The position numbers and the translations under genes are program-made. A stretch of 29,915 nt of DNA from Candidatus Thorarchaeota archaeon (GTDB lineage Archaea > Asgardarchaeota > Thorarchaeia > Thorarchaeales > Thorarchaeaceae). Location of the stretch: assembly GCA_016839445.1 (NCBI GenBank), contig JAEOUG010000082.1, positions 1 to 29,915 on the forward strand, written 5' to 3'. The notes below the pieces were generated by a model. It was given only the letters and a program-made list of their open reading frames with translations, searched no databases and was not told the origin of the DNA. Shown here piece after piece: positions 2,358 through 21,936 of this stretch (the stretch's first letter is position 1; each line of letters begins with the position of its first letter).

Positions 2358-2408
2358 AGGAGGGAAATCCTCCTGCTATGCCGCCCTGAGGCGAACCTCA
2401 TGGAACTC

Positions 2409-5780: not shown

Positions 5781-5942
5781 AGACTCGAAAAGAATCGAAA
5801 AAGCCTTTATAACATCTCAAATATGGTCGGAATTTCTATCAGATGTCTAAATCACCCTCTGAATCTTCTTACTTGTTTTCGGTGTTCTTGGGTAAGTTGA
5901 ACAATGAATTTGCCTCGTACTGAGTACAGGTGAAATGACAAG
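5741..5942 (+). promoter_or_regulatory. Duplicated cis-regulatory region, copy 1 (between regulator A and the recombination operon)
   Basis: Shares ATGCAyTTCyGTGAC, TGGTCGGAA, CTAAATC and TGGGTAA with 23637-23850 at a constant offset of 17,896, plus AGGTGAAAyGACAAG. Confidence 0.75.
5796..5812 (+). promoter_or_regulatory. Candidate BRE-TATA promoter (CGAAAAAGCCTTTATAA)
   Basis: Purine-rich BRE-like run followed by TTTATAA at 5806-5812, ~125 bp before the first operon gene; not conserved in copy 2. Confidence 0.45.
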
Positions 5943-6702
5943 TATGTCGTCGAGGCTTGCAGATGTTCTGGAGTCAGTCGTGGCTGATGACGCAGGTATC
6001 ATCGATTTGAGTAGGACCATGGAAATGGTCTATACGAACAGTGATCGGGCGGTCCTCTCAGCAGAACTCCTGTACTTCAGCGACTCGGAGCCTGCGTACA
6101 TGGAGATGAGAGTGGGGCTTAGGAGTGAGATACTCGTTGGATTCCCAACCTTCTTCTCCCTCACCGAGCGTCGTTTCCGTACTGCGGACATCCCATCACT
6201 TGTCCCATTGGTGGCAATCATTGCATCGAAGAAACGGCTGCAGGGAATCCACGACATACAGTTTGAGATCGATGAGCAGTCAACTCATGTGATCATCACG
6301 TTTGTCGGAAGAGCAGATCGCACTAAGTCCTGTCTCTCAGACTTGGCAAGCTCCATGAACCGGGTGATGGACCGCTGGAGCGGCTGGTCGGAGGTACTAC
6401 TCAGCATCCTGGACAGAGACCCTGTCCTAGGGGAGAGAATGACTGGCGTTGATTGGAGGGAGTTCTTGGCGGGTGAAGGTGGCTATGTCACGATGCCATG
6501 GTTCAGGCCAATGACGTATGCTGAGAGGGCATCAGCGCTCGAGTCCATAGTAACCGCCAGCCGAGCACTTCTGACTTCTTTCCTTTCACCTCATGAGATG
6601 AAGCACGACGAGGTCCAGAGTCTGCAGGCCTGGTTGTCCGCACTGGAACCTCAGTCGCGCGTCATTACAGCTGACCTAGAGCAAGTCACGGAGGTGGCAT
6701 GA
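5935..6702 (+). CDS. Hypothetical protein, first gene of operon (start may be ATG 5944)
   Basis: 255-aa ORF with SD AGGTGA; ATGA overlap with the next gene; no family recognised. Confidence 0.8.
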   Translation: MTSMSSRLADVLESVVADDAGIIDLSRTMEMVYTNSDRAVLSAELLYFSDSEPAYMEMRVGLRSEILVGFPTFFSLTERRFRTADIPSLVPLVAIIASKKRLQGIHDIQFEIDEQSTHVIITFVGRADRTKSCLSDLASSMNRVMDRWSGWSEVLLSILDRDPVLGERMTGVDWREFLAGEGGYVTMPWFRPMTYAERASALESIVTASRALLTSFLSPHEMKHDEVQSLQAWLSALEPQSRVITADLEQVTEVA

Positions 6703-7154
6703 TGTTAACACAGGAGTACGTATCGTGGGAGATAGGGTTGGTCTACGATGTCATGGATGAGGCTTGGCTGGCTGGTGCCAAGGCTGGCATCACACAAAGA
6801 GAGGGGCCAACATCTGACGAGGAATGGTTGGACTTCATTGAGAGCCTTAGAGTCATCCTGGATCGGATGCCGGAGGTGAAGGCTGCCGAGCCGGGTACTG
6901 CACCATCAGAGAGGTCTCTCTATGATGCACTTGGCGGCTATGTGAGTTTGACTGGCTGTCTTGGTATGGGATTTCTTTCGTTTCCTGTACCATTGATTCG
7001 GCAGGCCATGGTTCTCTCGTTATTTCCAGGCATGGATGTACGCGCAAGAGGCTCAGTGGTGAGCATCCCATATGGGGAGCTTCTGCGCTTCACCAGACTA
7101 GTCCCTATCAGAGGCCCACTGCAGGATGACCTCGGGAGGGTCTGCGATGACTGA
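6699..7154 (+). CDS. Hypothetical protein
   Basis: 151-aa ORF, SD GGAGGTGG, overlaps both neighbours. Confidence 0.75.
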   Translation: MMLTQEYVSWEIGLVYDVMDEAWLAGAKAGITQREGPTSDEEWLDFIESLRVILDRMPEVKAAEPGTAPSERSLYDALGGYVSLTGCLGMGFLSFPVPLIRQAMVLSLFPGMDVRARGSVVSIPYGELLRFTRLVPIRGPLQDDLGRVCDD

Positions 7155-8202
7155 CCTTGAGGCGGTTCCCGGAGTCGGCCCGGCGGCAGCGAAGAAGCTC
7201 AGAGAGGCATTCATCACAACCGCAGAACTTCTGAGTGTTCAGAATCCGGCTGAGTTACAGGAAAGGACCAAGCTGGGTGAGGGTACGGTATCCAAGATCA
7301 TCAAGAGCGCGAGGGACATGACTGGCAAGTTCGGCTTCCGGTCAGGTCTTGAGATAGAGGAGGAAATGCTTACGACCCCACGGCTCACCTCAGGGCTCCC
7401 CAGCCTTGACGAAGCGCTCTTTGGAGGCATCGAGGCAGGCTCCATCATGGAGTTCTATGGCAGTGCAAGAGGTGGGAAGACACAATGGTGTGCTCATCTC
7501 GCAGTTCGTGCACAACTCCCCGAGGATCAGGGGGGTCTCGCTGGTCGAGTCCTCTGGCTTGATACGGAGTCAAGCTTCAAACCTCATGTCATAAGAGCGA
7601 ATGCCGTACGATGGGGTCTGGACCCTGACGCTGCACTCGCCAACATCGGAAGGGCTCAGGTAGTGCTTAGCGGACAGATTGAGGAGATCTTCGAGACCAT
7701 TCCGCAGTTGTGTGCCGAGCAGGACTACAAGCTCGTGATCGTGGACTCGTTGACTGGTCTCTTCAGAGCCGAGTACACAGGACTTGACTCGTTGAGAATC
7801 CGACAGCAAGACATCAACAGACTTCTGAATCAGATGAGGCGAACTGGCACAGCAACTGATGCCATCTTCGCCTACACCAACCAAGTCATGGCCAAGATTG
7901 CAGTCTATGGTGGAAACCCGAACGCTCCTGTGGGCGGTCACATAGTGAGTCACGCATCCGACTACAGGTTCTACGTGAGGAAGGCCCTCAAAGAGAAGCG
8001 GAAGATAGACCTCCAGGACAATGCAGGCGTTCCAGAATTCTCGAAGGAGTTCGTACTTGGTTGGGGCGGATTCTATGAGGACTCCAAGGCATGCAAGCAA
8101 TCAGAAGCGAAGATACAGAAGTACTTCGATGAAAGGGGTTGGGGAATGAAGGAGAGAGAGGAGCCGGAGGAGGAGAGCGACTCAGAAGAAGCGGAGGAGT
8201 AG
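7147..8202 (+). CDS. radA: RadA/Rad51-family recombinase (divergent full-length paralog)
   Basis: N-terminal HhH (DLEAVPGVGPAAAKKL), polymerisation motif FRSG, Walker A GSARGGKT, LDTE, Walker B LVIVDS, FRAEY..RQQ, TNQV, GGHIVSH; acidic tail. Start moved to ATG 7147 (SD GGGAGGG). Confidence 0.9.
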   Translation: MTDLEAVPGVGPAAAKKLREAFITTAELLSVQNPAELQERTKLGEGTVSKIIKSARDMTGKFGFRSGLEIEEEMLTTPRLTSGLPSLDEALFGGIEAGSIMEFYGSARGGKTQWCAHLAVRAQLPEDQGGLAGRVLWLDTESSFKPHVIRANAVRWGLDPDAALANIGRAQVVLSGQIEEIFETIPQLCAEQDYKLVIVDSLTGLFRAEYTGLDSLRIRQQDINRLLNQMRRTGTATDAIFAYTNQVMAKIAVYGGNPNAPVGGHIVSHASDYRFYVRKALKEKRKIDLQDNAGVPEFSKEFVLGWGGFYEDSKACKQSEAKIQKYFDERGWGMKEREEPEEESDSEEAEE

Positions 8203-8212
8203 GTGGCAGAGC

Positions 8213-8653
8213 ATGAGTAAGACTAGAGGGATGATTAGGATATACAGATGCTCAAGGTGTCATAACGTAGGCTATTCTCGAGTGAGAGACCAGTCTGACG
8301 ACTCCATGTGCAGTCTGTGTTCCGCGACGATTACGCATTCGCCAAGTGCGATTTACGTCGACACGCCTGAAGAGGCGCAGCAACGGATGAAGAGCATGAT
8401 ACTACGGGCTGGACTCGAAAAGCCAGGAGTGAAGCGTGGTCTTGGTGTGAAGAAACGAGTGTTCAACATAGTCCTCTCACTTGTCGAAACCAACCGTGGT
8501 CGTCCTGTTTCACGGGAGCAGATTATGCAGGAGTGCAATGACGCAAAGATTGCCGATGACAAGGCCCAGAGTTTCCTTGAACAGCTGGAGGATGAGGGTC
8601 TCGTTATCAGTGACGGGAGTCTGATCACGGTTTCAGGAGGTGGTGTCACTTGA
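8213..8653 (+). CDS. Zn-ribbon + C-terminal winged-helix protein (DUF1922/DUF5817-like from memory)
   Basis: CSRC...CSLC followed by DTPEEAQQRM; C-terminal VSREQIMQEC...KAQSFLEQLEDEGLVI winged helix. Confidence 0.7.
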   Translation: MSKTRGMIRIYRCSRCHNVGYSRVRDQSDDSMCSLCSATITHSPSAIYVDTPEEAQQRMKSMILRAGLEKPGVKRGLGVKKRVFNIVLSLVETNRGRPVSREQIMQECNDAKIADDKAQSFLEQLEDEGLVISDGSLITVSGGGVT

Positions 8654-9240
8654 CCGCAGAAGCCGTTCAGTCAACACCACGAGCCTCAGTGATCAGTCTG
8701 GCCAATCTCCTCCAGAGGGACACTCCAAACAGGATAGCCATTGTTTCGACAGCCCTACCAGAGATAGACCCAGAGCTGTATGTCGTGACGAAGACAGAGT
8801 GGAAGAACCCAAGAGAGCCACTCCTTCATCAGCTTCCTCGGCTTCTCTCGAATCTGGAGGCTCTACGGGGCACACGGGGAGTACCATCCGAGGTGTATCT
8901 GGACAGCAACGATGGCATTGCTCTCTACTTGCCTACAGGAATACACGTGTCAGACATACCTATGGATCCAAAGAACGCCGTGCTGTTCCTGAAAGAAGTA
9001 ATCAGAGATACAATCGACTTCTACATCACAACAGTGAAGGATGTAGAGGCTCACTTCTGGAAGTTCGCCAAGAGGGAGGGATTCAGCAAGACGATTGTAG
9101 AGAAGATTGGCAGGAAAGAGGAGGGATTCCGATCTAGGTCCACCCTCTCTCGGTTCCATTCTCTCATGAGGCAGTACTTCTCCATTAAGTTCAGGATTCA
9201 TACCTCAGAGTCCTGCTTGAGGGTGGAGGGGCCGGTATGA
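8650..9240 (+). CDS. Hypothetical protein
   Basis: 196-aa ORF, TTG start in a TTGA overlap with SD GGAGGTGGTG; ATGA overlap with the helicase gene. Confidence 0.75.
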   Translation: MTAEAVQSTPRASVISLANLLQRDTPNRIAIVSTALPEIDPELYVVTKTEWKNPREPLLHQLPRLLSNLEALRGTRGVPSEVYLDSNDGIALYLPTGIHVSDIPMDPKNAVLFLKEVIRDTIDFYITTVKDVEAHFWKFAKREGFSKTIVEKIGRKEEGFRSRSTLSRFHSLMRQYFSIKFRIHTSESCLRVEGPV

Positions 9241-11207
9241 GCGCCGCCGCCCTTGATCCAATGGTGTGGTTTCCATACGAACCTAGGCCACATCAGGACA
9301 GGGCGGTGAAGTTTGCATCTCGGGTCTACTCTGAGAAGACTGTTGGTCTTCTGTCCGCTGACTGCGGCGTTGGAAAGACCATAGCAGTGCTCTCGGGGTA
9401 TTTGGCAGTACGAGCTAGAGACCCTTTCTCAAGGCTCCTGGTGCTCACACGCACACACTCGCAGTCTAAGGTCTTCGAAGAGGAGCTGACGGAGCTTCGA
9501 CTACATGATCCTGGAGAGGAGTGGCGCACAAACCTCACCGCCACTAGTATGGTGTCTCGAGTCCATGTGTGCCCCATGAAAGGACGCATGGAGCAGCTCA
9601 CAACGATGGGGTTCACGAAGCAGTGTGCGAAACTTGTCAAGACTGGCCAGTGCTCGTTCTACTGGAACTGTTACTCAAAGGGGAAGGGCGAAGTCCGTGT
9701 TCTTCCGAGGCCGTTCTTCAGAGAACAGGTGGAGTCTCTTCTGGCCACGCAGATTGTGACACGGGAGGCTGCTGAGAGGCTCTCGGAGTCTACGGGTTTC
9801 TGCCCCTACGAGGTCCTTCGATGGTGTGCAAAGAGCAGCCGCGTCCTAATCGGCCCCTATGACTACGTGTTCCGAGAACGAGTCAGGGACGCTCTTCTCT
9901 CCTCGGTTGGGTGCAATCTAGGCGAAGTCGACATACTAGTGGACGAGGCTCACAACCTCCCCGATCATGTTCTGAACTCGGAGGCCGCTGAGCTGAGCGG
10001 CAGAGACCTACTCTGGCTGAGGAAAAACAAGAAGCTCATCGTTCGTGACACTGGCGTCAAGTGGCTTGAGGACACTGTAGACTTCCTGTGGGAAACCGTG
10101 ATGCTCAGTCTCGACGGACTAAGGGATGAGAAGCGGCTTAACACGTGGGATGTATTCCCGCGTTTCGCAGACCCTTCACAGCTGAGCCAGCTTATGGAGT
10201 TCGACAGCGCAGTTGAGGGGATGGAGGACGCAATCCCAGTTGATACTCCTTTGGACCGTCTAGTGGCCTTCCTGTACTCGGGCCACAGGTCTGCCCAAAG
10301 CGAGGATTGGCTGGTCACGATTGAGCTCCTCGGAGCAGGCGAGGAAAGGTCTGAGGTCGAGGTCTCAAACACCCTACTGCGGATACGCCCGTTGAATGCA
10401 GCTGGTCTGATAGCTCCTGTCCTCAGGAGTGCGAGGTCTGCTATGGTCATGTCAGGGACACTGCGACCGACGGAGCACTACGGCAGGATGCTCGGCATAT
10501 CAAGCGCAGAGAAGGAGGACCTGCTAAGCCCCTACCCAAAGGGGACTCGGCTCATTCTCGTTGACAAGGAGGTTTCGACGAAGTACACTCTCCGAGGGCC
10601 ACTTATGTGGAGAAGGATTGCAACCCGCATCGAGACTGCTCTGCGTAGCCTGCCGCCCAACAAAAGCGCGCTAGTGTCGTTTCCGAGCTACGCGATAATG
10701 CAGGAAATCCTCAGCTACGGAATCGATTGCGGATTCAGGGAGATGCTTGTCGAGGACAGAACAATCAGAATCGAGGACGTTGAGGAGTCCGTTCTTCTCA
10801 CTCCTCATGCAATCTTCTGTGTTTACGGTGGGAAGATCAGTGAGGGAATAGACCTTGTCGAGAATGGCTCCAGCATGATCGACCTGATAATTGGCACGGG
10901 AATCCCGTTCTCGCCACCGAGCAGTCATCAGAAAGCCCTTCAGGATTTCTATGACAGAAGGTACGGCGACAAGTCTGGATACTACTACTCAGCAGTATTG
11001 CCGTCGATTCGCCAGGTCGTACAACTCGCAGGGAGGCTAAGGAGGTCACCAGAGGACAGAGGCGTTGTCGTGCTGCTTGACAAGCGATTCCTGAGATACA
11101 TGAATGCGTTTGGAGACGATGCCGCCTCAGACCTGTGGCCATTTGCCGGCGACCAAGAGCTGGCTGATGCCATTGAGCTCTTTGTCAGGGAGGTTGCAGC
11201 TCAATGA
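9237..11207 (+). CDS. xpd: XPD/Rad3/DinG-family Fe-S cluster SF2 DNA helicase
   Basis: Q motif FPYEPRPHQ, Walker A ADCGVGKT, four Fe-S cysteines (VCPM, QCAK, QCSFY, FCPYE), DEAHNL, SGTL, FPSY, GKISEGID, QLAGRLRRSPEDRGVVVLLDKRF. Confidence 0.92.
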   Translation: MSAAALDPMVWFPYEPRPHQDRAVKFASRVYSEKTVGLLSADCGVGKTIAVLSGYLAVRARDPFSRLLVLTRTHSQSKVFEEELTELRLHDPGEEWRTNLTATSMVSRVHVCPMKGRMEQLTTMGFTKQCAKLVKTGQCSFYWNCYSKGKGEVRVLPRPFFREQVESLLATQIVTREAAERLSESTGFCPYEVLRWCAKSSRVLIGPYDYVFRERVRDALLSSVGCNLGEVDILVDEAHNLPDHVLNSEAAELSGRDLLWLRKNKKLIVRDTGVKWLEDTVDFLWETVMLSLDGLRDEKRLNTWDVFPRFADPSQLSQLMEFDSAVEGMEDAIPVDTPLDRLVAFLYSGHRSAQSEDWLVTIELLGAGEERSEVEVSNTLLRIRPLNAAGLIAPVLRSARSAMVMSGTLRPTEHYGRMLGISSAEKEDLLSPYPKGTRLILVDKEVSTKYTLRGPLMWRRIATRIETALRSLPPNKSALVSFPSYAIMQEILSYGIDCGFREMLVEDRTIRIEDVEESVLLTPHAIFCVYGGKISEGIDLVENGSSMIDLIIGTGIPFSPPSSHQKALQDFYDRRYGDKSGYYYSAVLPSIRQVVQLAGRLRRSPEDRGVVVLLDKRFLRYMNAFGDDAASDLWPFAGDQELADAIELFVREVAAQ

Positions 11208-11797
11208 AACGCACGACACACTGGCTCCTTCTTTGGGTCTTGCTCGTGTCAGTCGCCGCAAGCTCCCTTGTGGTCGTTGTAACGGCTGAAACGCTGGCTT
11301 TGCGAATCATAGCATTGGCGACCATAGCTGTGGTCGGGATGTGCAGTTACGTTCTCTTGTTCAGAAAGTCTACTCCCCAGATCTTCTGGGACGAGGAGAT
11401 GGGAATCTTGTTATTGTTTGGAGTCTGGAACGTTGAAGCGAGAGCAGCTCGTCTTCTTAGGAGTGTTCCTATTGGCATAGACGTTTCCTACTCGGCGAAG
11501 AAAGTAATGCAGGCGATGAGTGAGAGGCTGCCCAAGAGTGGAAACTGCAGGTTGGACTTCGTGGTCCACCGGCCTGTGGGGAACAGCTCGACCCGCGCAG
11601 GGTTCATAGTAGCTCGATCCAAGTTCATCGGATTGCTCAGCAAGAAGCGAGTCAACGACCTCTGTGATTCTGTGTTTCAGGACGCCACAGTATTGGAGAG
11701 CGCGATGCGGTCATCGTATCCGCACACTCCGGTAGAGAGAGGTGAGCTAGAGGACGTGCGAATGATCATGACTGGGGGCACTAGCGTTGTTGTCTGA
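11204..11797 (+). CDS. Membrane protein (two N-terminal TM helices + soluble alpha/beta domain)
   Basis: Hydrophobic residues ~7-27 and ~30-54; ATGA overlap; SD GGAGGT. Confidence 0.78.
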   Translation: MKRTTHWLLLWVLLVSVAASSLVVVVTAETLALRIIALATIAVVGMCSYVLLFRKSTPQIFWDEEMGILLLFGVWNVEARAARLLRSVPIGIDVSYSAKKVMQAMSERLPKSGNCRLDFVVHRPVGNSSTRAGFIVARSKFIGLLSKKRVNDLCDSVFQDATVLESAMRSSYPHTPVERGELEDVRMIMTGGTSVVV

Positions 11798-14387: not shown

Positions 14388-16579
14388 TGAGCGCCGTAGT
14401 GAGTGTACCGGACAACGTCACACGAATCTTGGAGGAGGTAGGAGTTACTCCCCGAGGTATTCAGATACAGGCTATCGATGCTGGTCTGTTACATGGTGAG
14501 AGTATTCTGGTCACTTCCCCCACAGGCTCAGGGAAGACGCTCATCGGAGAGATGGGTCTTCTTAGGGCGGTCTTGGCTGGTCGTCGAGGTCTCTACTTGG
14601 TTCCTCTGAGAGCACTAGCGCACCAAGTTGCGAGGTCTCTGAAGGATCGATATGACGGAAGAGCGGTCAGAATCGGAGTGACTACCGGAGACCTCCACCT
14701 CTCTGGTGAAGAGATGGCTGGTTTCGACGTAGTGGTGACTACCTATGAACGAGCAGACTCCTTACTGAGACATCAGGCTAGTTGGCTCTCTGAGATTGGC
14801 ACGGTGGTCATTGATGAGATTCAGACAATGTCGGAGGGGCGGAGAGGTGCAAGACTTGAGAGCGTCATCCTCCGTATCAAGCGAATGATAGGAGATGTGC
14901 AGCTGATTTCGCTCTCAGCAACGGTGGACCAGCCGCAGGAACTTGCATCGTGGCTGGACGCGAAGCTGGTAGCTTCCACGGAACGCCCTGTACCTCTTGT
15001 CTATAAGATGTTCACCACCTCAAATCGGCATCTTACGGTTCGAACTGCCACGATGGCCGTTGTGCAGTCAGAGGGTCAAGTAATCGTGTTTCACAGGACT
15101 CGGAGAGAAGCGGAGGCAGAAGCCGAGAGGCTCTCTGTCCATGTGGGGCGCCAACTAGGAACCTCTGAGAGAGACCTGCTTGACAGAGAGTTGGACTCCT
15201 TCTCTCAAAGAGAGACTACCTTGAGCGGGCAGCTTCGCAAGCTTCTGCACCACGGTGTCGCCTTCCACCATGCTGGAATCCCGTCTGGCCCGAGATGCTT
15301 GGTTGAGGACCTCTTCAGGAGGGGACTGATCCGAGTAGTCTGCGCCACCACAACGCTTGCCTCCGGAATGCATCTTCCTGCCAGGACGGTAGTACTCGCT
15401 AGCACACGTTCTCCTGAGAACCACAGGGCCCTTCTCTCAGCAAACTCTGTTCATCAGATGCTTGGCAGAGCTGGTCGGCCCGGTTACGACAGCGCCGGGT
15501 TCGGTGTTGTTCTGGTGGGCAGCAGGGGAGAATCTGATGTGGCGAAGAAGCTGTACTTTCATGTATCTGGAGAAGATGGACGGGAAAAGCTCTCTCCTCG
15601 GTACGATTCTGTGTCCAGCGCCTTGGGCTCTTCCGACCACCTTACTGAGCAGGCTCTTGTTCTGCTCGATCTCTTAGGAGAGGCGACACCTGAAGAGATC
15701 GAGGATGCACTCTTAGATTCTTACTACGTGCACTCAGGCGCGAGACGGTCAAGAAGCCCAATGCGACTGCTCATTGTGGAGTCAGTTAGCGCTGAAACCG
15801 CTATCGAACGCCATGGTCTGAGTGACACAATCAGGGCAGGGAGGGAGGGAGTGCTCGGGAAGGCTGGCATTAGAGAGTCATCTCAAGAGGTGATTGGTGG
15901 AATAGTTTCTGGCTTTCAGGGGGGTCATTTCACCTGCAGATTCTCTGCTCGCCTCAATACCAACGGCACAATAGAGGGGGCTAGTTGCTCCTGTGGCAGT
16001 CCGATAGAGGAGGGCATTCTATGTGTGCATCTAGTAGCACTTGGCTTGCAGGCCGTGCGCGACCCTCAAGCAAGTTCACTGGCTGACTATGTCATTCCAC
16101 TTGCTCTGGATGAACATGCCCCACTGGGAACTCTGACTCGACTTGGCCTAGTAGAGGCAGGGCGAGAGAAACCGTACCAAATCTCAAGGCTTGGCCGATT
16201 GGTGACCCGGCTGTACCTGAGCATCTCAACGGCGAGAGAGCTTCTCGCATGTATACCGTTCACAGATGATCCAGTTGGCTTGATGTCCCTGCTCCGTCAC
16301 TTGCTAGCCATTGAGTCTGATCTCAGACTTGATGAGTCGTTTGACCAATTCATAGGGGCCGTAGCCACGACCACAACGCCAGTCCGGGAGGTCGCCGAGT
16401 CATGTGGAATTCCTCTCGGAGATGCATTTGGCCTTCTGGACCGGTCTCGGTGGATGCTTCATGCTATCAGCGTTTTGTCGGAGCATGGTGGCCTTGAGAG
16501 ATTGAAGGACATCAGCGGAAGCCTACTGAATGCGGTTAATTCCAGACTTGAAAGGAGGTCTGTAGATGGAGATAGTTGA
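14387..16579 (+). CDS. hel308: Hel308/Ski2-like SF2 helicase with inserted SWIM zinc finger
   Basis: SPTGSGKT, VPLRALA, TTYER, DEIQ, SAT, RPVPL, FHHAG, ATTTLASGMHLPA, QMLGRAGRPGYD; SCSCGSPIEEGILCVH (CxCx9CxH). Confidence 0.88.
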   Translation: MSAVVSVPDNVTRILEEVGVTPRGIQIQAIDAGLLHGESILVTSPTGSGKTLIGEMGLLRAVLAGRRGLYLVPLRALAHQVARSLKDRYDGRAVRIGVTTGDLHLSGEEMAGFDVVVTTYERADSLLRHQASWLSEIGTVVIDEIQTMSEGRRGARLESVILRIKRMIGDVQLISLSATVDQPQELASWLDAKLVASTERPVPLVYKMFTTSNRHLTVRTATMAVVQSEGQVIVFHRTRREAEAEAERLSVHVGRQLGTSERDLLDRELDSFSQRETTLSGQLRKLLHHGVAFHHAGIPSGPRCLVEDLFRRGLIRVVCATTTLASGMHLPARTVVLASTRSPENHRALLSANSVHQMLGRAGRPGYDSAGFGVVLVGSRGESDVAKKLYFHVSGEDGREKLSPRYDSVSSALGSSDHLTEQALVLLDLLGEATPEEIEDALLDSYYVHSGARRSRSPMRLLIVESVSAETAIERHGLSDTIRAGREGVLGKAGIRESSQEVIGGIVSGFQGGHFTCRFSARLNTNGTIEGASCSCGSPIEEGILCVHLVALGLQAVRDPQASSLADYVIPLALDEHAPLGTLTRLGLVEAGREKPYQISRLGRLVTRLYLSISTARELLACIPFTDDPVGLMSLLRHLLAIESDLRLDESFDQFIGAVATTTTPVREVAESCGIPLGDAFGLLDRSRWMLHAISVLSEHGGLERLKDISGSLLNAVNSRLERRSVDGDS

Positions 16580-18173
16580 ACACGAAGTAACAGAGTCAGC
16601 AGGAACGGAAGAGAACGAGATTGAGAGGCACCTTAAGCGAAATGACTATCGAGTGTGCCAGTACCCCAATGGGTTGACCATGGGTCTCAGACTCCAGAGT
16701 GTCCCCGGCTCTCGCGGCGTAAACGTCGACGTAGTCCACATTCTGGACATGCGCATAGCTAGGTTCGGTAGAACTTCCTTGGCTGCTCAGTCGGCGGTTC
16801 TTGAGACCGTGTGCAAAGACACTCGACTCCTGCTTGCTGACGTGGGACTTGGTTCTCTCTTTGAAAGCCAGGAGATTGTCACCCCGTTCGGCAAGAGTGT
16901 ACTCCGTGTCCTTCGGCTACCAAAGGCCTCTCAGGCATCTCTCATCTACGAAACCCGGAACGTCTATGGTGTGTATTCAGATGCAAGCGTGCCGCCCTCA
17001 ACCCTGGAGTGGTTGACTGAATCCTCCAAGATGATTAGAGTAAGTGAACTTGAGCTCTTACACAGGAGTGATTCAAGATCCTCGCTTCAGGAGGTGAAGA
17101 AGGCTATTGACTCCGGCAAGTGGAAAGAGCTTGAGAAGGGCCACAGGGCAGCATGGTGGAGTCTCCTTCCACTTATCACCACAGTCGCATCTTTCGTGGG
17201 ATTCATGGCGTCAATAGTCACTTCCTCAGGCACTCTGCTAATCCCGTTGATGACGCTCGCTGTGTCAGTGCCCCTTCTGGCCTGGTTAGCAAGGACCGCG
17301 ACAGCGGCGTTGGACGCGTTCAACGAGGCTCTAGTAACCGAGAAGGCCCACCTAGAACGGGCTGGCGATGTCAATAGAATCAGAGAGGCTGTCCACGCCG
17401 GCGAAGAGAAGCTCCGACTCGTGGGGAACTTGAACTTCATTGTCACTCCCCTGATGGGTGGCGCGGGTGTAGCAATCGAGTCTGGTGATGTTGCTTCTGC
17501 CGCATCTTCTCTCTCCGCAATCCTAGATGAGTGCGTTGTACACTCTCCTGGGCTTGAGGGTGAGAAGGGGTTGGTTGGTGATCTGGGGCTTAAGAAGTTC
17601 ATCGAGCTCTTTCTCTACTTGGGCCTGGATCTCTCCGAAGATGAAGAGATGGAACTAAGTCTTGCTTATGCAGCCCTCACAGGTCACAAGTCAGCGCCGC
17701 TGGCTCAACACGAGATTATCCATCACATGGGAGTCTTGAACAATGCATTGTTTGATTGCGGAATCCTCAGTGCCGACGTCAAGTCCTCCATTGACGACAT
17801 GATGAATCTTCGGGCCGCGGGAGGATATGTCATAGAAACAGTGCGTGATGAAGCATCTGAAGAGATTGCTGAGATTCCCGAAGGTGACGAAGAGGGCTCT
17901 TCAGGAATAGATGATGAAAGTCTAGCAGAGATGAGTTCGGCGGCTTTGAAAGCCAGCGGGGATGAAGATGTCGTCGAAGCAGCAGATGAGGATGACTCGG
18001 AGCCGATTCTTGTTGCAGAAACAGTCCAGACAACCCTTGATGCGAGTGACGATCTCCCGAAGGCCAGTCCTATCGAACACGAGACGGCCGAGGGAAGAGT
18101 CGCAAAGGCAGTTGAGGAGCGCTCGGAGAGTTCCTCATCGAAGAAGAAGGAGCGCGAGGCCATTGAAGCTTGA
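16566..18173 (+). CDS. Membrane protein with central TM hairpin and acidic low-complexity C-terminal tail
   Basis: WWSLLPLITTVASFVGFMASIV / LLIPLMTLAVSVPLLAWLA; D/E-rich final ~110 aa; SD AGGAGGT. Confidence 0.8.
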   Translation: MEIVEHEVTESAGTEENEIERHLKRNDYRVCQYPNGLTMGLRLQSVPGSRGVNVDVVHILDMRIARFGRTSLAAQSAVLETVCKDTRLLLADVGLGSLFESQEIVTPFGKSVLRVLRLPKASQASLIYETRNVYGVYSDASVPPSTLEWLTESSKMIRVSELELLHRSDSRSSLQEVKKAIDSGKWKELEKGHRAAWWSLLPLITTVASFVGFMASIVTSSGTLLIPLMTLAVSVPLLAWLARTATAALDAFNEALVTEKAHLERAGDVNRIREAVHAGEEKLRLVGNLNFIVTPLMGGAGVAIESGDVASAASSLSAILDECVVHSPGLEGEKGLVGDLGLKKFIELFLYLGLDLSEDEEMELSLAYAALTGHKSAPLAQHEIIHHMGVLNNALFDCGILSADVKSSIDDMMNLRAAGGYVIETVRDEASEEIAEIPEGDEEGSSGIDDESLAEMSSAALKASGDEDVVEAADEDDSEPILVAETVQTTLDASDDLPKASPIEHETAEGRVAKAVEERSESSSSKKKEREAIEA

Positions 18174-18846
18174 GTCACTCTTGGGAGAGAGCAACTTTCT
18201 CCACATCTGGGGTCAGGCTGGAACTGGAAAAACGCTTCTAGCAACAGCGCTGGCTGCACAAGCGAGCCGATTGGGGATTGTGGAGTATATCAACACAGAC
18301 GGCAAGAGAAGCTTCATACGCGCTCTCAAGAGACACACCAGCTCTTTTGGCGGGCTTACCTCAAGAATCCGGGTGACGTTGGCAGACGGCGCATCTGAAG
18401 CCTTTGGCGCAGTTAGGTCCGTCGCTTCATCGGTTTCGCCCGAGACCAGCATGGTGGTCGTCGACCCGATTACTCGCGTCCTCGACATGTCGACAGTTGA
18501 TGATGTGATGTGGGGCCAAGAAATGATGGAGGAGGTTCTTCCATCACTCGTTGCCCTCGCCGAAGGAGGAATCCGCGTTCTGGTAGTTAGTGAAGTCCGA
18601 AACACAGACGTCGGGCTTCTACCTGTGATGTATGACTCCGTGAATCGCTGGAAGCCCCGGAACTTGAGAGCAACCAGAGGTCCAGGAAGGCATTCTACGC
18701 TCATGCTACCTACCCCTGATGGAGAAGAGGTACTTGCGCTGATGAGGGTAGATGACAGAGGCTGTCTTTGGCTAGACTATCCTGCCGGGGCGCACATTCT
18801 GAGTGAGGGTGAGCAATCATGTTTGGAAAGACAATCATGCGTGTGA
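18163..18846 (+). CDS. RadB-like short RecA-family ATPase
   Basis: Walker A GQAGTGKT, YINTD, Walker B VVVDP, VSEVR. Start reassigned to TTG 18163, overlapping the upstream stop; the ORF-track extension from 17962 shadows the upstream gene. Confidence 0.8.
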   Translation: MKLESLLGESNFLHIWGQAGTGKTLLATALAAQASRLGIVEYINTDGKRSFIRALKRHTSSFGGLTSRIRVTLADGASEAFGAVRSVASSVSPETSMVVVDPITRVLDMSTVDDVMWGQEMMEEVLPSLVALAEGGIRVLVVSEVRNTDVGLLPVMYDSVNRWKPRNLRATRGPGRHSTLMLPTPDGEEVLALMRVDDRGCLWLDYPAGAHILSEGEQSCLERQSCV

Positions 18847-19787
18847 TATCTTATGCAGTGGCAGGGGCAATAGCAGTCCTCCTGGGAGGTAGGTTGCTCA
18901 GCTCTGTTGCGTCGGTTGTTTTGGCCTGGAGACTCGGCAATCCGCTTCCACTTGCTGTTGTGACGGTTGGAACAGTGCTCCTCGTCTTCCTATCGCGAGG
19001 CGAGGCCACGACACTGCCACTTATGATTCTGAACATCATCTCATGGATTGCGTCAGCGTACATGTCTGTCGTCGTCTTCTTTGTGGCCTTGCCCTTTGGC
19101 CTAATCCTTGGTTTCACAGCGATGGCTGTAAGCCTCATTGCGGTCAGCGTAGTCAAGGACACCAGAGGCCTTGGAGGACGAGTCCGCAGCATGATCGAGC
19201 GCACAGCGATTCTTGGCGCCTCAATCCCTCTCCTCGGCCATGAGATGGATGACTCGGGCATGTTGTCATCTTTGGGCCGGCGTAACTTCGTCGCGTTTCT
19301 CGTGTCCCGAAATGAACGTGGACGGATTCTGCAGTTGATGCGGGAACGGCCTCTGCTACCAATATCCCTCTCAGGATACGAGGAAACCGACATCCTCTTT
19401 GTTCGAGATGATGGTGCAAATGCCGCCCAGATTGAGGTGCTTCTCAGAGATGCCGGCGTGGACGGCCTTGAGAAACTCTCATCCTTCCATACTAGTGCAG
19501 TCCTTAACCTTCCACTCATAGAGAAACGAGAGGAGGTCCATACACCCTCCGAGTATGTCTTCTGTCATGATGTTGCCACCGTAGACAGGCTCGTTGAGGT
19601 CTGGCCTAAGAGAATGACCCTGCACCCCAGTAGGTCTGGAGTAATAGCGATAGCGAGTGAAGACGCCGTTCCAGGATTTGAGACCCAGCCAATACCGAGA
19701 GGCCTACGGTCGACGGTCGTCATGGAGAGAAACGTTTCATTGCTTGAAGCCGGAGGGAAAGATGTTGCCGCAGAGCCTGCCGCTTAA
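18819..19787 (+). CDS. Polytopic membrane protein (~4 N-terminal TM helices + soluble C-domain)
   Basis: Hydrophobic first ~112 aa; SD GAGGGTGA; overlaps both neighbours. Confidence 0.78.
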   Translation: MFGKTIMRVISYAVAGAIAVLLGGRLLSSVASVVLAWRLGNPLPLAVVTVGTVLLVFLSRGEATTLPLMILNIISWIASAYMSVVVFFVALPFGLILGFTAMAVSLIAVSVVKDTRGLGGRVRSMIERTAILGASIPLLGHEMDDSGMLSSLGRRNFVAFLVSRNERGRILQLMRERPLLPISLSGYEETDILFVRDDGANAAQIEVLLRDAGVDGLEKLSSFHTSAVLNLPLIEKREEVHTPSEYVFCHDVATVDRLVEVWPKRMTLHPSRSGVIAIASEDAVPGFETQPIPRGLRSTVVMERNVSLLEAGGKDVAAEPAA

Positions 19788-20484
19788 CAGTGTGGAGTTT
19801 GAAGACAGACCTTTCGTCCAACTACGTCCCAGACAGCTTGACCAGACGCTTGGAAGAGTCCTTCTTCCCTCACAGGTCAGTCTGGTTCACGGTCCTGATC
19901 GGGCTCCCCTCACTCTCGTGGCCCATGCCGTCACTGCTGGTGTGGTATCTGGCGGAGGTAGATGTCTCTTCTTGGACTCTGGCGGTAACTACAACCCGAA
20001 CCTCATTCGTGCCATGCTTGGCGAAAGCGACCCTGAGTCTGTCGGGCGAATCATTGTCGGCCCCGTCTTTGGCCTCACAGACCTCACCGAGGCTCTGAAG
20101 ACAGTGAAGCCATCTGATGGAGTTCTGGTCGTGGTGGTGGACAGTCTGACCGGAGTTCTCAACCTCACTGGTGACTCTGGTTCTAAGGAGCGACAAAGGG
20201 ACTTGTTTGGAGCCCTTGAGGAACTCAGGAGGACTGTCAACAGTCACGGAGTCCATGCTCTCCTGACAGACCACTCGAGTAATGATTGGAGGACCGGCGA
20301 GAGACGCGTAGTGGGAGGTAACGTCTTGCAGCACAACATTGACACATCTGTCTACTGCTCCTGGATCCGGAAGATAGAGGACGGTATCCTCCTCACGGTA
20401 GAACGCAGTCCTGTCTTTCCTCCCCCTACGTCGGTTGCCGTGAAGCTTGGCGTTCGAGGACCAAGGTCTCCAAACAGGAGGTAG
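19762..20484 (+). CDS. RadB/Rad51-paralog-like protein with inactivated Walker A
   Basis: LDQTLG...VSLVHGPDRAPLT (GKT lost), LFLDSGGNYNP, Walker B VVVVDS, ERQRDL, VVGGNVLQH. Start reassigned to ATG 19762 (SD GGAGGG). Confidence 0.78.
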   Translation: MLPQSLPLNSVEFEDRPFVQLRPRQLDQTLGRVLLPSQVSLVHGPDRAPLTLVAHAVTAGVVSGGGRCLFLDSGGNYNPNLIRAMLGESDPESVGRIIVGPVFGLTDLTEALKTVKPSDGVLVVVVDSLTGVLNLTGDSGSKERQRDLFGALEELRRTVNSHGVHALLTDHSSNDWRTGERRVVGGNVLQHNIDTSVYCSWIRKIEDGILLTVERSPVFPPPTSVAVKLGVRGPRSPNRR

Positions 20485-20489
20485 CAGAG

Positions 20490-21479
20490 CTGGGTGTCAA
20501 GAACTGGGGGAAGATGATTCCATGGCGATGGGCAAAGGTGGAGGAGCTCGAGCCAAGGATCTTGGCCTTTGACAGCCCCAATTACCTCTCTCGCAGGCTC
20601 TCTGTCGTACGTCAACAGCGCTTCGATAGAGTCCCACTAACTCATGCCCACCTGTTCCTGGCGACGGTGCTTTCTTGCTTACGCAATCATGTCCTTCCAG
20701 TCTTTGTCTTTGATGGCCCTCCGGAACATCTCAAGAGGAAGGCAAACCCGAGCCTTATCCAGAATTCCGAGAGACTCTATCGAAGATGGAGGGCTGATTC
20801 ATTGGCGGGCTCGCCAGACATTGATCTCTCCTGCTTTGCGAGTCCGGCGGTGAGGCTCTACTTCGGCCTCTGCCACATCAAGGATCTTTGCTCTGCGTCA
20901 GGTATGCCAACCGTGCTGGCACCATCTGAAGCCGAGATGTCAGCTGCTGTGTTGAGTCGCGAGGGTAAAGTCGGGTCAGTGGTATCAAATGACGCAGATG
21001 CCCTGCTCTTCGGTGCTTCTCATGTGACCCGGAGCGTCAGGTTCTCAAAAGGGGAGATTGAGCGTGTCCTCATGAGAGACTTGCAGCGCAGACTAGAGCT
21101 TGACCTGGAGCAGATGAGGGATCTTGCGATCATCTGTGGCTGTGACTTTCATCGAGAGGGCATTCGAGGAATGGGGCCTCATAAGGGCGCAATAGCCCTC
21201 AAGAGACACGGCGGATTAGAGCCTCTTCTCAGAGCCATGGGAGTGACGCCTAGCGAGATTGAGAAGTACATGAAGGCGAGGGACGTGTTTGACGAGGGCC
21301 ACTATATCAAGCTTGGAGTCGAAAACCTTGTGCTCAAGCCGCCTGTGTCTGCTCGTGTGACAGAGCTGCTCCAACCGGCCCTTGGCCAAGAGACTGCTGA
21401 GAAGAGGTCCATGGAGCTGCTACGCCTCTGGAAGGACTTCGGGAGAGTTCAGATGACCCTCGAGGGGTGGATTGCATGA
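20490..21479 (+). CDS. fen: FEN1/XPG-family structure-specific nuclease with PCNA-interacting (PIP) box; probable CTG start (first ATG at 20514)
   Basis: (M)GVKNW N-terminus, ILAFD, PVFVFDGPPEHLK, APSEAE, SNDADALLFG, helix-hairpin GCDF..GIRGMGP, C-terminal QMTLEGWI. Confidence 0.88.
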   Translation: MGVKNWGKMIPWRWAKVEELEPRILAFDSPNYLSRRLSVVRQQRFDRVPLTHAHLFLATVLSCLRNHVLPVFVFDGPPEHLKRKANPSLIQNSERLYRRWRADSLAGSPDIDLSCFASPAVRLYFGLCHIKDLCSASGMPTVLAPSEAEMSAAVLSREGKVGSVVSNDADALLFGASHVTRSVRFSKGEIERVLMRDLQRRLELDLEQMRDLAIICGCDFHREGIRGMGPHKGAIALKRHGGLEPLLRAMGVTPSEIEKYMKARDVFDEGHYIKLGVENLVLKPPVSARVTELLQPALGQETAEKRSMELLRLWKDFGRVQMTLEGWIA

Positions 21480-21936
21480 TTCTGAAGAGGTGTTGAAGAT
21501 GAGTAGTGACGCAGGTTCTGATGTGCTTCGTATTGAGAACAGACGTGAGATCATAAGCGATGTTATCGAGTTTGCCCGGAGAGTGAGGATTGCACTATCA
21601 CTTGAGAAGGCAGGTGAGATGGAAGTGATAGTGCACGATCGTTCGGCTCAACTCTGTGCACTGGTGGGGCAGGGCGGCTTTGTACTTCTAGGACTCAAGA
21701 GCGAACTGGGTTGCAGAGGAGACCCTGAGATCTCGTTGAGAGTGGACAGGGACTGTGAGAATCCAGACGTCTACAGGGTCGAGGGCATTGCGATATCCCT
21801 CGAGACTGGCCCAGAGGAGGTTTCTGTCAGTCAAGTCAGCAATTGGATAAGGGAAAACGGTATTGATGAATGTGAGAACATCACCATTACGGAAGAGGGC
21901 GGTCACCTACGCATATTGATTGATGTCCTAACTTAA
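21472..21936 (+). CDS. Hypothetical acidic protein, last gene of operon
   Basis: 154-aa ORF overlapping the fen stop; its stop abuts the convergent gene. Confidence 0.7.
   Translation: MHDSEEVLKMSSDAGSDVLRIENRREIISDVIEFARRVRIALSLEKAGEMEVIVHDRSAQLCALVGQGGFVLLGLKSELGCRGDPEISLRVDRDCENPDVYRVEGIAISLETGPEEVSVSQVSNWIRENGIDECENITITEEGGHLRILIDVLT

Follow-up and report, generated by a model that had tools for sequence, protein, structure and literature searches.

Exchange of chromosomal DNA for recombinational repair has been described for the Ced (CedA/A1/A2/B, CedD/E) and Ted (TedA/B/C) systems (PMC11868833, PMC11823120), which are VirB4-based import systems, the Ted loci lying beside HerA and Rad50 genes (PMC9905601). 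In the archaeal HerA-NurA-Mre11-Rad50 cluster for end resection, the gene of a HerA-superfamily ring protein lies together with those of a 5' nuclease and of its partners in recombination (PMC13748450), and Matsuo et al. (2025; PMC12722695) reported two RadA clades for Heimdall-, Gerd- and Njordarchaeia and, with less robustness, for Lokiarchaeia; the words 'Thorarchae', 'operon' and 'neighbor' are absent from the main text of the latter paper, and gene context is therefore not treated in that part of it. The locus compared here lies in a window of 29,915 nucleotides, the whole stretch of DNA analysed, from a Candidatus Thorarchaeota archaeon, an identity with which the source names of the nearest homologs agree; no paper describing this operon was found in the literature. 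Its products probably form a dedicated membrane-associated recombination machine, and the locus gives this Thorarchaeota genome, beside its canonical recombination genes, a fast-evolving second set fixed with membrane proteins in one conserved operon.

The ORF listing of the window places 16 plus-strand genes between positions 5935 and 21936 (Table 1), overlapping or nearly abutting in the way that an earlier note on this DNA had claimed. At the extremes, neighbouring genes overlap by 29 nt or lie 29 nt apart; the junctions are -4, -29 (-8 if g03 starts at ATG 7147), +10, -4 and -4 from g01/g02 to g05/g06; -4, -11, 0, -1 and -14 from g06/g07 to g10/g11; -11 (g12 from TTG 18163), -28 and -26 (g14 from ATG 19762) from g11/g12 to g13/g14; and +29 and -8 at g14/g15 and g15/g16. 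An SD-like motif and the lengths of the orthologs point to the TTG start of g12. SD sites, previously ascribed to most of the genes, are matched (GGAGG, GAGG, GGAG, GGTG or AGGA in the 20 nt before the listed start) in 13 of 16, with the exception of g08, g12 (longest-ORF start) and g15. The proposed 16-gene unit stands for g01-g15 only: g16 has the codon usage of a gene, and this in no frame but its own, and since its homolog is seen in 0 of 25 related loci, and nowhere else in the genome, the conserved unit comprises 15 genes. A Pfam family is absent from 10 of the 16 genes.

Table 1. Coordinates and reading of the operon genes and two flanking genes
Feature	Position	Strand	Reading
g01	5935..6702	+	255-aa orphan that opens the operon
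g02	6699..7154	+	151-aa orphan
g03	7126..8202	+	RadA paralog with HhH domain, RecA core and acidic tail; ATG 7147 may be its start
g04	8213..8653	+	zinc-ribbon (CxxC...CxxC) protein; C-terminal winged helix, read by eye
g05	8650..9240	+	196-aa orphan
g06	9237..11207	+	XPD/Rad3-type Fe-S helicase paralog
g07	11204..11797	+	membrane protein: N-terminal hydrophobic helices, then ~130-aa conserved domain
g08	11787..12065	+	92-aa orphan
g09	12066..14387	+	VirB4/HerA-fold protein, membrane-anchored
g10	14387..16579	+	Hel308-like helicase paralog with SWIM-type CxC...CxH insert
g11	16566..18173	+	membrane protein with long hydrophobic helical hairpin
g12	18163..18846	+	RadB-like P-loop protein, Walker A intact; longest ORF from 17962
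g13	18819..19787	+	membrane protein: 3-4 N-terminal TM helices, then ~170-aa domain
g14	19762..20484	+	RadB-like, Walker A degenerate; longest ORF from 19657
g15	20514..21479	+	FEN1-like 5' nuclease paralog
g16	21472..21936	+	154-aa lineage-specific ORF, outside the conserved unit
550-aa orphan	21937..23589	-	convergent to, and conserved neighbour of, g15
522-aa paralog of the 550-aa orphan	4212..5780	-	between GH3 and g01

The RadA, XPD-like, Hel308-like, two RadB-like and FEN1-like products named earlier are confirmed by Pfam and NCBIfam matches. The product of g03 matches Pfam Rad51 (E 2.4e-54) and HHH_5, scores 265 bits with NF003301 (cut-off 259) and 246 with TIGR02236 (cut-off 361), and keeps the Walker A GGKT and the Walker B Asp in 19 sequences. 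In g06, the Pfam domains DEAD_2, HBB and Helicase_C_2 are accompanied by 160.8 bits with TIGR00604 (cut-off 247), by archaeal XPD as the closest PDB matches, and by a Walker A, DEAH and four Cys conserved in 19 sequences. The g10 helicase (Pfam DEAD and Helicase_C, SWIM at E 0.006) is covered by Hel308-type NCBIfam models over approximately residues 5-450 only, with scores below the cut-offs; its top PDB match, Hel308 2p6r, extends over residues 12-448, and the C-terminal half is unlike Hel308. Motifs I, II (DExQ) and SWIM of g10 are conserved in 19 sequences, and the SWIM motif is absent from the canonical Hel308 of the genome. Similarity to RadB is weak both in g12 (TIGR02237, E 3e-9), where SGKT is conserved in 20 sequences, and in g14 (Pfam Rad51, E 7.1e-5; TIGR02237, E 2.6e-7), where 19 sequences have HGxxxxPLT at the position of Walker A. 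Finally, g15 bears XPG_I and XPG_N (Pfam), scores 110.7 bits with TIGR03674 (cut-off 352), has archaeal FEN1 as its closest PDB matches, and combines acidic active-site residues conserved in 18 sequences with a C-terminal Q..L motif. The catalytic motifs of the operon enzymes are kept across 18-21 orthologs, and RadA, XPD, Hel308, the two RadB-like proteins and FEN1 constitute, judging by these motifs, a complete extra set with its catalytic motifs intact.

Canonical RadA is encoded on contig C43 (315 bits, versus 186 for the operon RadA; 38% identity with g03), canonical Hel308 on C20, FEN1 on C133 (31% identity with g15) and an XPD-like gene on C77 (25% identity with g06); because these genes lie elsewhere, the operon enzymes are a divergent second copy, as the earlier note had claimed. 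In the RadA tree g03 forms a clade of its own (support 100/99). Genomes that share 89-91% identity in canonical RadA share 62-72% in the operon copy, so that the operon evolves at about three times the pace of canonical RadA. A rather unlikely alternative is that this set serves internal repair of the cell's own membrane-attached chromosome (for instance at broken ends or stalled forks, or by gene conversion between copies of the genome), with no DNA crossing the membrane; in its favour, every enzyme belongs to a repair or recombination family and has intact motifs, but a housekeeping set is already present in the genome, including a NurA-HerA pair on contig C20 separate from the operon, and the roughly threefold faster evolution, together with the clean deletion found in one relative (see below), is unusual for core maintenance.

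Hydrophobic helices were found by a Kyte-Doolittle scan in g07 (11204), g09 (12066), g11 (16566) and g13 (18819), the identical four membrane proteins claimed before, and none of them matches a transport or metabolic family in the Pfam search; one segment of g12, exactly at the threshold, is taken for a core strand of the RecA fold. The g09 protein consists of a TM hairpin (~45-90), an alpha/beta N-domain, a P-loop-type domain (288-660) and a C-terminal winged helix. Its AF2 model (pLDDT 75.8, helical hairpin visible) aligns in VIA with VirB4 4ag5 (Z 28.9, rmsd 2.7, 327 aligned) and further with DndH-C (Z 26.3), HerA (25.9) and TrwB (21.9); the VirB4/HerA fold is also matched by Foldseek (E 1.4e-12), the Sir2-HerA and DUF4297-HerA complexes are among the structural matches, and the family member P0172 bears Pfam DUF87/HerA_C. 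The Walker A lysine is missing from g09 in every lineage checked (the P-loop position is GGxWxxR in Thor; other lineages mostly have GGxxxER or variants), which makes g09 unlikely to be a translocation motor as CedB or VirB4 is. The comparison with Ced and VirB folds that the earlier note proposed thus finds a VirB4/HerA fold in g09. The g11 protein has no known fold: its beta-rich N-domain (18-158), hairpin (185-266), helical C-domain (280-432) and disordered acidic tail are modelled by AF2 at pLDDT 78.5 (at least 90 for 304 residues), Foldseek gives no match at E<=0.001, and the top VIA wide match (Z 9.8) is to the hairpin only. Neither g07 nor g13 has a PDB match, g07 resembles neither g09 nor g13 in profile comparison, and nothing was returned for g13 from the ESM Atlas. 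By hydropathy, the TM parts of the operon membrane proteins are hairpins or 3-4 helices, and no VirB6/CedA-like channel (6-7 TM) or VirB2-like pilin was recognised among the operon proteins.

The locus thus resembles Ced and Ted in encoding a membrane-associated VirB4/HerA-fold protein with small TM proteins, the ATPase-like domain of g09 being closest to VirB4 by fold. It differs in that g09 lacks the Walker A lysine, whereas CedB, TedB and VirB4 are motor ATPases, and carries a winged helix; in that the CedA/VirB6-like channel and the VirB2-like pilin are not recognised; in that the operon itself holds recombinase, mediators, two helicases and a nuclease; and in its host phylum, Asgard rather than Thermoproteota. 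The HerA-NurA cluster is approached through the DUF87/HerA-annotated member of the g09 family and through HerA as a top structural match; unlike that cluster, however, the operon has a membrane-anchored ring-protein candidate without the P-loop lysine and a FEN1-type nuclease instead of NurA; it lacks Mre11 and Rad50 (Pfam), and a separate NurA-HerA pair is encoded elsewhere in the genome.

The overall reading offered here, a tentative one, is a membrane-associated second recombination system coupled to chromosomal DNA exchange, its substrate being most likely DNA that crosses the membrane, inward or outward, in a Ced/Ted-like manner. In this scheme g09 would be a ring-shaped, probably non-hydrolysing membrane scaffold with g07, g11 and g13; DNA held by the scaffold would be unwound by the two helicases working in opposite directions (XPD 5'-3', Hel308 3'-5') and trimmed by the FEN1-like 5' nuclease, and the RadA paralog would be loaded onto the resulting single strand with the aid of the RadB-like pair, for which the SWIM finger of the helicase may be a docking site. 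DNA exchange would in this way be coupled directly to recombination, as in the VirB4-based Ced/Ted systems of Thermoproteota; we infer the physical contacts among the operon products from operon structure alone. Bacterial natural competence (ComEC, ComFA, DprA, RecA, ComM), in which a membrane apparatus and a helicase for incoming single strands act with a mediator and a recombinase, follows the same logic by analogy only, and no ComEC, ComFA or DprA family was found in the window (Pfam). Internal repair would assign g09 the role of a DNA-binding membrane tether, for which the missing Walker A lysine, tether-like rather than pump-like, and the lack of a recognised channel or pilin both speak.

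The order g01-g15 is kept in 24 of 24 related loci from 14 genera, with the same chromosomal flanks (4/4 same-genus loci and 20/20 loci of 13 other genera), the gene-order conservation that the earlier note had proposed to check; the 20 further loci include 15 complete ones, 2 ended by contig edges and 3 without detectable g01-g03 or g02, and no inversion or other-strand match occurs in any examined locus. Common flanks among the 25 loci are GH3 (12), the 550-aa gene (18) and a 199-aa gene (15). In the relative G011, a clean deletion has removed g03-g15 and retained g01 and g02. The locus is chromosomal and vertically inherited, but dispensable, and its fixed, inherited place also suits internal repair. 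Since relatives of g09 are found in none of the phage, plasmid or IMG/VR collections, it is not a mobile element. Conjugative elements are typified by VirB4-fold proteins, and the operon genes diverge from the host copies, but it is very improbable that the locus is what remains of a plasmid or virus once integrated, a conjugation or replication module with incidental repair genes, given the lack of such relatives, the identical insertion context in 14 genera, the even GC content along the contig, and the absence of integrase, capsid and replication initiator families from the window.

Antiviral or anti-plasmid defence, in which g09 and the TM proteins, as a membrane-anchored sensor-scaffold, would recruit the helicases and nuclease to destroy DNA injected across the membrane, much as helicase-nuclease defence systems linked to the membrane do, is unlikely on balance, although fast evolution and dispensability, as seen in G011, fit it equally well, which counts against the DNA-exchange reading. 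In the Sir2-HerA and DUF4297-HerA complexes, both structural matches of g09, a HerA-family protein is joined by an effector, a PLD-type nuclease follows the g09 homolog in genome G068, and PADLOC matches g06 to the type IV-associated DinG (227.8 bits) and g10 to HamB (up to 128.9) and PDC-M23B (151); these PADLOC matches, however, are to generic helicase cores, with HamA, Cas or any other partner absent. A HerA-fold protein with a nuclease or helicase is likewise shared with Zorya, Sir2-HerA/Nezha, DUF4297-HerA and Hachiman, whose partner genes are absent here (PADLOC) and from which the operon differs in being fixed, vertically inherited and equipped with recombinase and mediators. Defence islands are typically patchy and mobile, so that one fixed chromosomal site over 14 genera counts against defence, as do the lineage-specific clades of the RadAs described below and the lack of g09 relatives on phage, plasmid or viral contigs; we know of no defence system with a full recombinase and mediator set, which also counts against it.

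A simpler version of the same gene association is present in other Asgard families, as compact modules of a RadA paralog, a g09 homolog, a SWIM-Hel308, a FEN1-like or PLD nuclease (the latter 3' of the g09 homolog in G068), a RadB-like protein and membrane proteins. RadA-, RadB-, Hel308-, FEN1- or XPD-type genes lie near g09 homologs in 9 of 11 non-family loci, TM proteins in all six inspected, and the module helicase is distinguished by its SWIM insert in 5/6 distant loci; large extracytoplasmic proteins recur beside the modules and point outward, against purely internal repair. The module RadA is an extra copy in 5/5 genomes tested. In the gene tree called for earlier, the module RadAs are grouped in lineage-specific clades and all set apart from the canonical ones, on one side of a moderately supported branch (76/81; long branches involved); the likeness to the second RadA clade of Matsuo et al. 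(2025) is confined to this split between module and canonical copies.

In eukaryotes, SWIM-Rad51-paralog and HELQ-Rad51-paralog modules occur as the Shu complex, SWS1-SWSAP1 and HELQ-BCDX2. The operon likewise encodes a helicase of the Hel308 family and a SWIM finger together with two paralogs of RecA fold, of which one has a degenerate Walker A, but its SWIM finger lies inside the helicase, and g06, g10 and g15 find their best PDB matches among archaeal rather than eukaryotic paralogs.

Among the orphans, g01 and g02 have no Pfam, NCBIfam, PADLOC or PHROGs family, and PDB profile searches gave no sequence match for g01 and nothing significant for g02; g04, g05 and g08 have no Pfam family, and the PDB profile search was empty for g05. 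Of the 20 further loci, 19 have a detectable g01, 17 a g02, and all 20 have g05 and g08. Both CxxC pairs of g04 are conserved in 21 sequences and its architecture is also read in the compact modules of genomes G101 and G030, and a g05 homolog is present in genome G025. A homolog of the 550-aa orphan, whose relatives are all 'hypothetical' or unnamed, adjoins g15 in 18 of the 25 loci; the insertion of its 522-aa paralog is seen in this genome only (0/25 related loci), and the two, the only copies in the genome, share 23% identity (E 1e-10).

The earlier note had described 16 coupled genes on one strand, and the analysis recovered them as 16 tightly packed open reading frames (g01–g16), with junctions between a 29-nt overlap and a 29-nt gap when g12 is taken to start at TTG 18163 and g14 at ATG 19762, and with Shine-Dalgarno-like motifs ahead of 13 of the 16 listed starts. 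The window spans the whole of contig C46 (29,915 nt) in a metagenome-assembled genome of 2.9 Mb (completeness 89.8%, contamination 6.45%); the nearest homologs of the window genes carry the source name Candidatus Thorarchaeota, and the 19 sequencing runs listed, from six studies, are all DNA. Six of the genes are identified by Pfam and NCBIfam: g03 as a RadA-type recombinase including its HhH domain (Pfam HHH_5, Rad51), g06 as an XPD-type Fe-S helicase in which Walker A, DEAH box, four Fe-S cysteines and the arch/HBB domain are all present, g10 as a Hel308-type helicase core that also gives a weak SWIM match, g12 and g14 as weak RadB-like P-loop proteins, and g15 as a FEN1-type nuclease with XPG_N, XPG_I and the acidic residues. 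No Pfam, NCBIfam or PHROGs family was found for the remaining ten; among these, g04 is a zinc ribbon protein whose C-terminal part, on visual reading, resembles a winged helix. A hydropathy scan placed hydrophobic helices in exactly the four proteins named beforehand as membrane proteins, with two predicted transmembrane (TM) helices each in g07, g09 and g11, and 3–4 in g13. The unit as first drawn proved one gene too long: g16 looks coding, but its counterpart is absent from 25 related loci, and the conserved unit is g01–g15.

Features of the window and of related loci, with positions (loci without a contig or locus code lie in the window)
Feature	Position	Strand	Remarks
ThiF-family and GH3-family (acyl-adenylate-forming) genes	1455-3953	-	upstream, divergent from operon; GH3 a conserved neighbour, also in related genome G025
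Upstream paralog of 550-aa orphan	4212-5780	-	opposite flank of operon; unique to this genome
Operon g01-g16	5935-21936	+	
End of g03	8150-8202		strongly acidic tail
End of g11	17870-18173		strongly acidic tail
550-aa orphan	21937-23589	-	convergent neighbour of operon
Giant protein, >1818 aa	24462-29915	+	runs off contig end; alpha-alpha-toroid (Prenyltrans/TED-like), Big_1, Filamin, MG4 domains
Canonical Hel308 match, window's own genome	G000:C20:24101-26149		one in-frame TAG inside
Deletion locus, related genome G011	C97 (L093 118-5489)		g03-g15 missing
Third RadA paralog, genome G052	G052:C31:8730-9620		on another contig; nests in module clade of RadA tree, very long branch
Small Arf/Ras-like GTPase, genome G101	L042 2913-3521		same strand as module, which it begins
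PLD-type nuclease, genome G068	L039 8376-9311		directly after g09 homolog, at FEN1-like gene's place in other lineages

Further RadA, Hel308, FEN1 and XPD-like copies lie on other contigs of the same genome, in keeping with the earlier proposal of a divergent second recombination set. The canonical RadA on contig C43 outscores the operon RadA (315 vs 186 bits), the Hel308 on C20 reaches 617 bits vs 279 for the operon copy, a FEN1 of which g15 is a paralog is found on C133, and an XPD-like gene opens C77; identities of the operon proteins to these copies are 38% (RadA), 34% (Hel308), 31% (FEN1) and 25% (XPD). The reading of the operon enzymes as the housekeeping copies of the genome was rejected on account of these separate genes. 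Most operon enzymes do not reach the curated equivalog cut-offs: g03, a divergent RadA paralog and not the housekeeping copy, passes NF003301 (265 vs 259) and falls below TIGR02236 (246 vs 361), g06 is under the TIGR00604 subfamily cut-off (160.8 vs 247), g15 under that of TIGR03674 (110.7 vs 352), and Hel308-type models cover residues ~5–450 of g10 only, with scores far under the cut-offs (280 vs 1200; 331.6 vs 887). The full five-domain Hel308 architecture was not found in g10, which carries a SWIM-type motif in its C-terminal half instead. Among solved structures, it is archaeal XPD, Hel308 and FEN1, rather than eukaryotic paralogs, that g06, g10 and g15 resemble most. Conserved over 18–21 orthologs are Walker A and B of RadA, Walker A, DEAH box and the four Fe-S cysteines of XPD, motifs I and II (DExQ) and the SWIM CxC...CxH of the Hel308-like helicase, Walker A of g12, and the FEN1 acidic residues; Walker A of g14 is degenerate and conserved in that form. 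Judged by these motifs, the operon enzymes are not decaying, despite their divergence.

Synteny across relatives, to which the earlier note had pointed, is extensive. The order g01–g15, on one strand, recurs in four genomes of the same genus, with all 15 genes in G001 and G015, g02–g15 in G006, and g03–g15 in G002, whose contig ends there; a further 20 loci, drawn from 13 other genera of the family, all keep this order, 15 of them with all 15 families and two cut by contig ends, and none of the 20 shows an inversion or an other-strand match. Detectable g01–g03 are missing from G248, and g02 from G160 and G245; the last (locus L064) contains two tandem g03-like ORFs. The flanks are also shared: across 25 loci, a divergent GH3-family gene borders the operon in 12, the convergent 550-aa orphan in 18 and a 199-aa gene in 15, with a giant surface protein further downstream. 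The common gene order and flanks indicate that the operon occupies a fixed chromosomal position and is not an island. A mobile-element remnant is thus a very improbable reading, rejected both for the common flanks and because relatives of g09 were found in none of the plasmid, phage and IMG/VR collections searched; tblastn with g09 found nothing in plasmids and phages, and of 18 pattern matches in a g09 search of viral contigs none was confirmed. In G001 and G100, the canonical RadA lies ~78–79 kb upstream of the operon RadA on the same contig (C1 in both); this like distance indicates that the wider chromosomal arrangement is also conserved.

Of 76 other genomes of the family, 52 gave a match to a g09 profile; four genomes without a match were inspected, two of which (G278 and G016) could not be assigned. 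In G136, the operon is present and runs off the contig end after g06, and in G011, the convergent 550-aa gene comes immediately after GH3, g01 and g02, a natural clean deletion of g03–g15 which indicates that the system is dispensable and which offers a ready comparison for population genomics. Canonical RadA is 85–91% identical among five Thorarchaeota genomes; the operon RadA is 72% identical in G001 and 62% in G006, where canonical RadA stands at 89% and 91%, respectively, and the other operon proteins are 28–54% identical in G001. By these identities, the operon evolves fast.

The likeness to VirB4 for which the earlier note had proposed to test the membrane proteins emerges in g09. Its AF2 model, built on a 15-row alignment (mean pLDDT 75.8), opens at the N-terminus with a helical hairpin where the hydrophobic segment lies, followed by an alpha/beta domain, a P-loop-type domain and, at the C-terminus, a winged helix; in this predicted structure, residues 288–660 best match the VirB4 C-terminal domain 4ag5 (Z 28.9, rmsd 2.7, 327 aligned), with further matches to DndH-C, HerA and TrwB (Z 26.3, 25.9 and 21.9). 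Foldseek relates g09 to TrwK (E 1.4e-12), and full-length TrwK/VirB4 chains align with residues 100–672 at Z 16–19 and rmsd >9; a PDB sequence-profile search with g09 gave nothing at E<0.1, the best match being a HerA-type NTPase (E 0.18). The Walker A site (strand-loop-helix) reads GGxWxxR in 15 sequences from Thorarchaeota and G025, and GK[ST] is absent from all 11 homologs of other lineages, and in most of them the site has GGxxxER or a variant form; the Walker B aspartate is retained. Lacking the Walker A lysine, g09 is probably not a motor but a scaffold or a ring that binds DNA. A g09 profile run against 1.84 billion representatives returned 2630 relatives with E<=0.001, 133 of them with E<=1e-30, in clusters whose members' source names include Baldrarchaeia, Helarchaeota and Lokiarchaeota. 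Pfam was applied to 16 of the relatives: P0172 has DUF87/HerA, another a winged helix, and 14 have no family. A complex prediction of g09 (280–773) with g15 scored 0.00 and gives no verdict either way.

The association extends beyond the family of the window. Among 11 loci fetched around g09 homologs, all from other Asgard families, nine contain RadA-, RadB-, Hel308-, FEN1- or XPD-type genes, the other two being short contigs (13.6 and 8.2 kb), and TM proteins are encoded inside the module in six of six loci inspected by hydropathy. The module of G101 consists of twelve tightly packed genes on one strand, in the order small GTPase, orphan, Hel308-like helicase, zinc-ribbon protein like g04, RadB-like protein, TM protein, RadA paralog, small orphan, TM protein corresponding to the N-part of g09, g09 C-part, 268-aa FEN1-like nuclease and 4-TM protein. 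In five of five genomes tested, the module RadA (150–252 bits) is an extra copy, a higher-scoring RadA (333–351 bits) being found elsewhere. In an unrooted tree of 25 RadA rows, the module RadAs of Thorarchaeota and G025 group in a clade (100/99) and those of families f7 and f19 of the genome set in another (100/100), and a branch supported at 76/81 has all 13 canonical-type RadAs on the same side; this topology, which involves long branches, fits one old duplication. Several distant module helicases score 418–532 bits against the Thorarchaeota g10 profile vs 345 bits for the genome's canonical Hel308, and the SWIM-type motif occurs in five of six, the canonical Hel308 being without it; the distant module FEN1-like genes are not separated from canonical FEN1 by HMM score (100–114 vs 107 bits). 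The linkage of recombination genes with membrane proteins is phylum-wide in Asgard archaea, and ancient within them.

Among known systems, Ced and Ted are VirB4-based import systems, and HerA and Rad50 neighbour Ted loci (PMC9905601). The VirB4-family ATPase fold is shared by g09 in its AF2 model, whereas the intact Walker A GxxGxGK[ST] of a VirB4-like motor is not found in it. The VirB6/CedA-like channel is a multi-pass protein of 6–7 TM helices; two or 3–4 helices are predicted in the operon proteins by hydropathy, and the modelled g11 gave no match. The genes to consider for a VirB2-like pilin (CedA1/TedC), g07 and g08, have no Pfam family. The operon also differs from the HerA-NurA-Mre11-Rad50 cluster: no NurA, Mre11 or Rad50 Pfam family occurs in the 16 genes, and NurA and HerA form an adjacent pair on C20. 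Internal membrane-tethered repair is a rather unlikely reading. Antiviral defence is improbable to a similar or greater degree: PADLOC helicase-core models match g06 and g10, and weak matches involve g04 (LmuB, E 0.0087) and g12 (four models, E 3.7e-4 to 4.2e-3), but the other 12 genes gave no match and no complete listed anti-phage system, such as HamA with HamB or Csf proteins with DinG, was found in the operon. A second RadA clade has been reported in some Asgard groups by Matsuo et al. 2025 (PMC12722695), the main text of which mentions neither Thorarchaeota nor gene context; likewise, SWIM is unmentioned in the main text of a Ski2-family survey (PMC10946056), and a full-text literature search, supplements aside, yielded no description of the operon. 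We rate the operon as one that joins HerA/VirB4-centred DNA-processing clusters with archaeal recombination genes, its novelty lying in the membrane linkage and the degenerate P-loop.

As read from the sequence, the operon is a dedicated, intact, extra recombination toolkit in fixed linkage with membrane proteins, and a membrane-associated recombination machine is its likely general function. In such a machine, a g09 ring with g07, g11 and g13 would hold DNA at the membrane, the XPD (5'-3') and Hel308-like (3'-5') helicases would unwind it, the FEN1-like nuclease would remove 5' strands or flaps, and the RadB-like pair, which may dock on the SWIM finger of the helicase, would load the RadA paralog for strand invasion. 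By analogy to the VirB4-based Ced and Ted import, the most likely substrate would be DNA crossing the membrane; the full reading, a membrane machine recombining such DNA, is put forward tentatively, somewhat short of an even chance. A doubtful extension of it is an ancient, sex-like trans-membrane recombination apparatus of Asgard archaea for exchanging chromosomal DNA between cells, in which a degenerate VirB4/HerA ring would dock incoming DNA onto the RadA paralog, and the SWIM-Hel308 with two Rad51-paralog-like proteins would be a prokaryotic forerunner of eukaryotic HELQ/Shu-type mediator modules. The origin of recombination, of its many paralogs and of sex is an open question, and the operon brings to it a concrete conserved gene set, with a second RadA lineage, a SWIM-Hel308, two RecA-fold mediators, and XPD and FEN1 paralogs tied to membrane proteins and a putative VirB4/HerA-fold scaffold. 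If DNA exchange holds true, archaea would have elaborated the VirB4 theme independently for a third time, and, as we know of no gene-transfer machinery in Asgard archaea, this would be the first there; in the case of defence or membrane-tethered repair, a full recombinase toolkit would still be put to a use not described before.

Of the other membrane components, g11 gave a confident AF2 model with pLDDT 78.5 (304 residues >=90), in which a beta-rich N-domain is followed by a long hydrophobic hairpin, then by a helical domain, and last by an acidic tail predicted to be disordered. Foldseek found no structural relative of g11 at E<=0.001, and weaker matches were distrusted (VIA wide, Z<=9.8 on the helical hairpin only, and four-helix-bundle rows including one HEPN entry). 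PDB sequence-profile searches with g01, g02, g05, g07, g11 and g13 gave nothing at E<0.1, an ESM Atlas search no usable match for g11 and g13, and hhalign no detectable paralogy among the membrane proteins (g07, g13 and g11 vs g09, and g13 vs g07; probabilities <=1.2%).

The two 550-aa-type flanking genes belong to an orphan family, of which they are the sole copies in the genome, and are distantly paralogous to each other (23% identity, E 1e-10). Homologs of the giant downstream protein occupy the same place in six of 25 related loci. Large TM proteins also lie inside modules of other lineages. In G031, a toroid protein of 1081 aa overlaps the RadB-like gene; its homology to the giant protein of the window is not claimed, the toroid-repeat similarity being weak (E 0.02). 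Homologous M28-peptidase-like proteins of 888 aa and 1016 aa are found inside the modules of G063 and G068, respectively.
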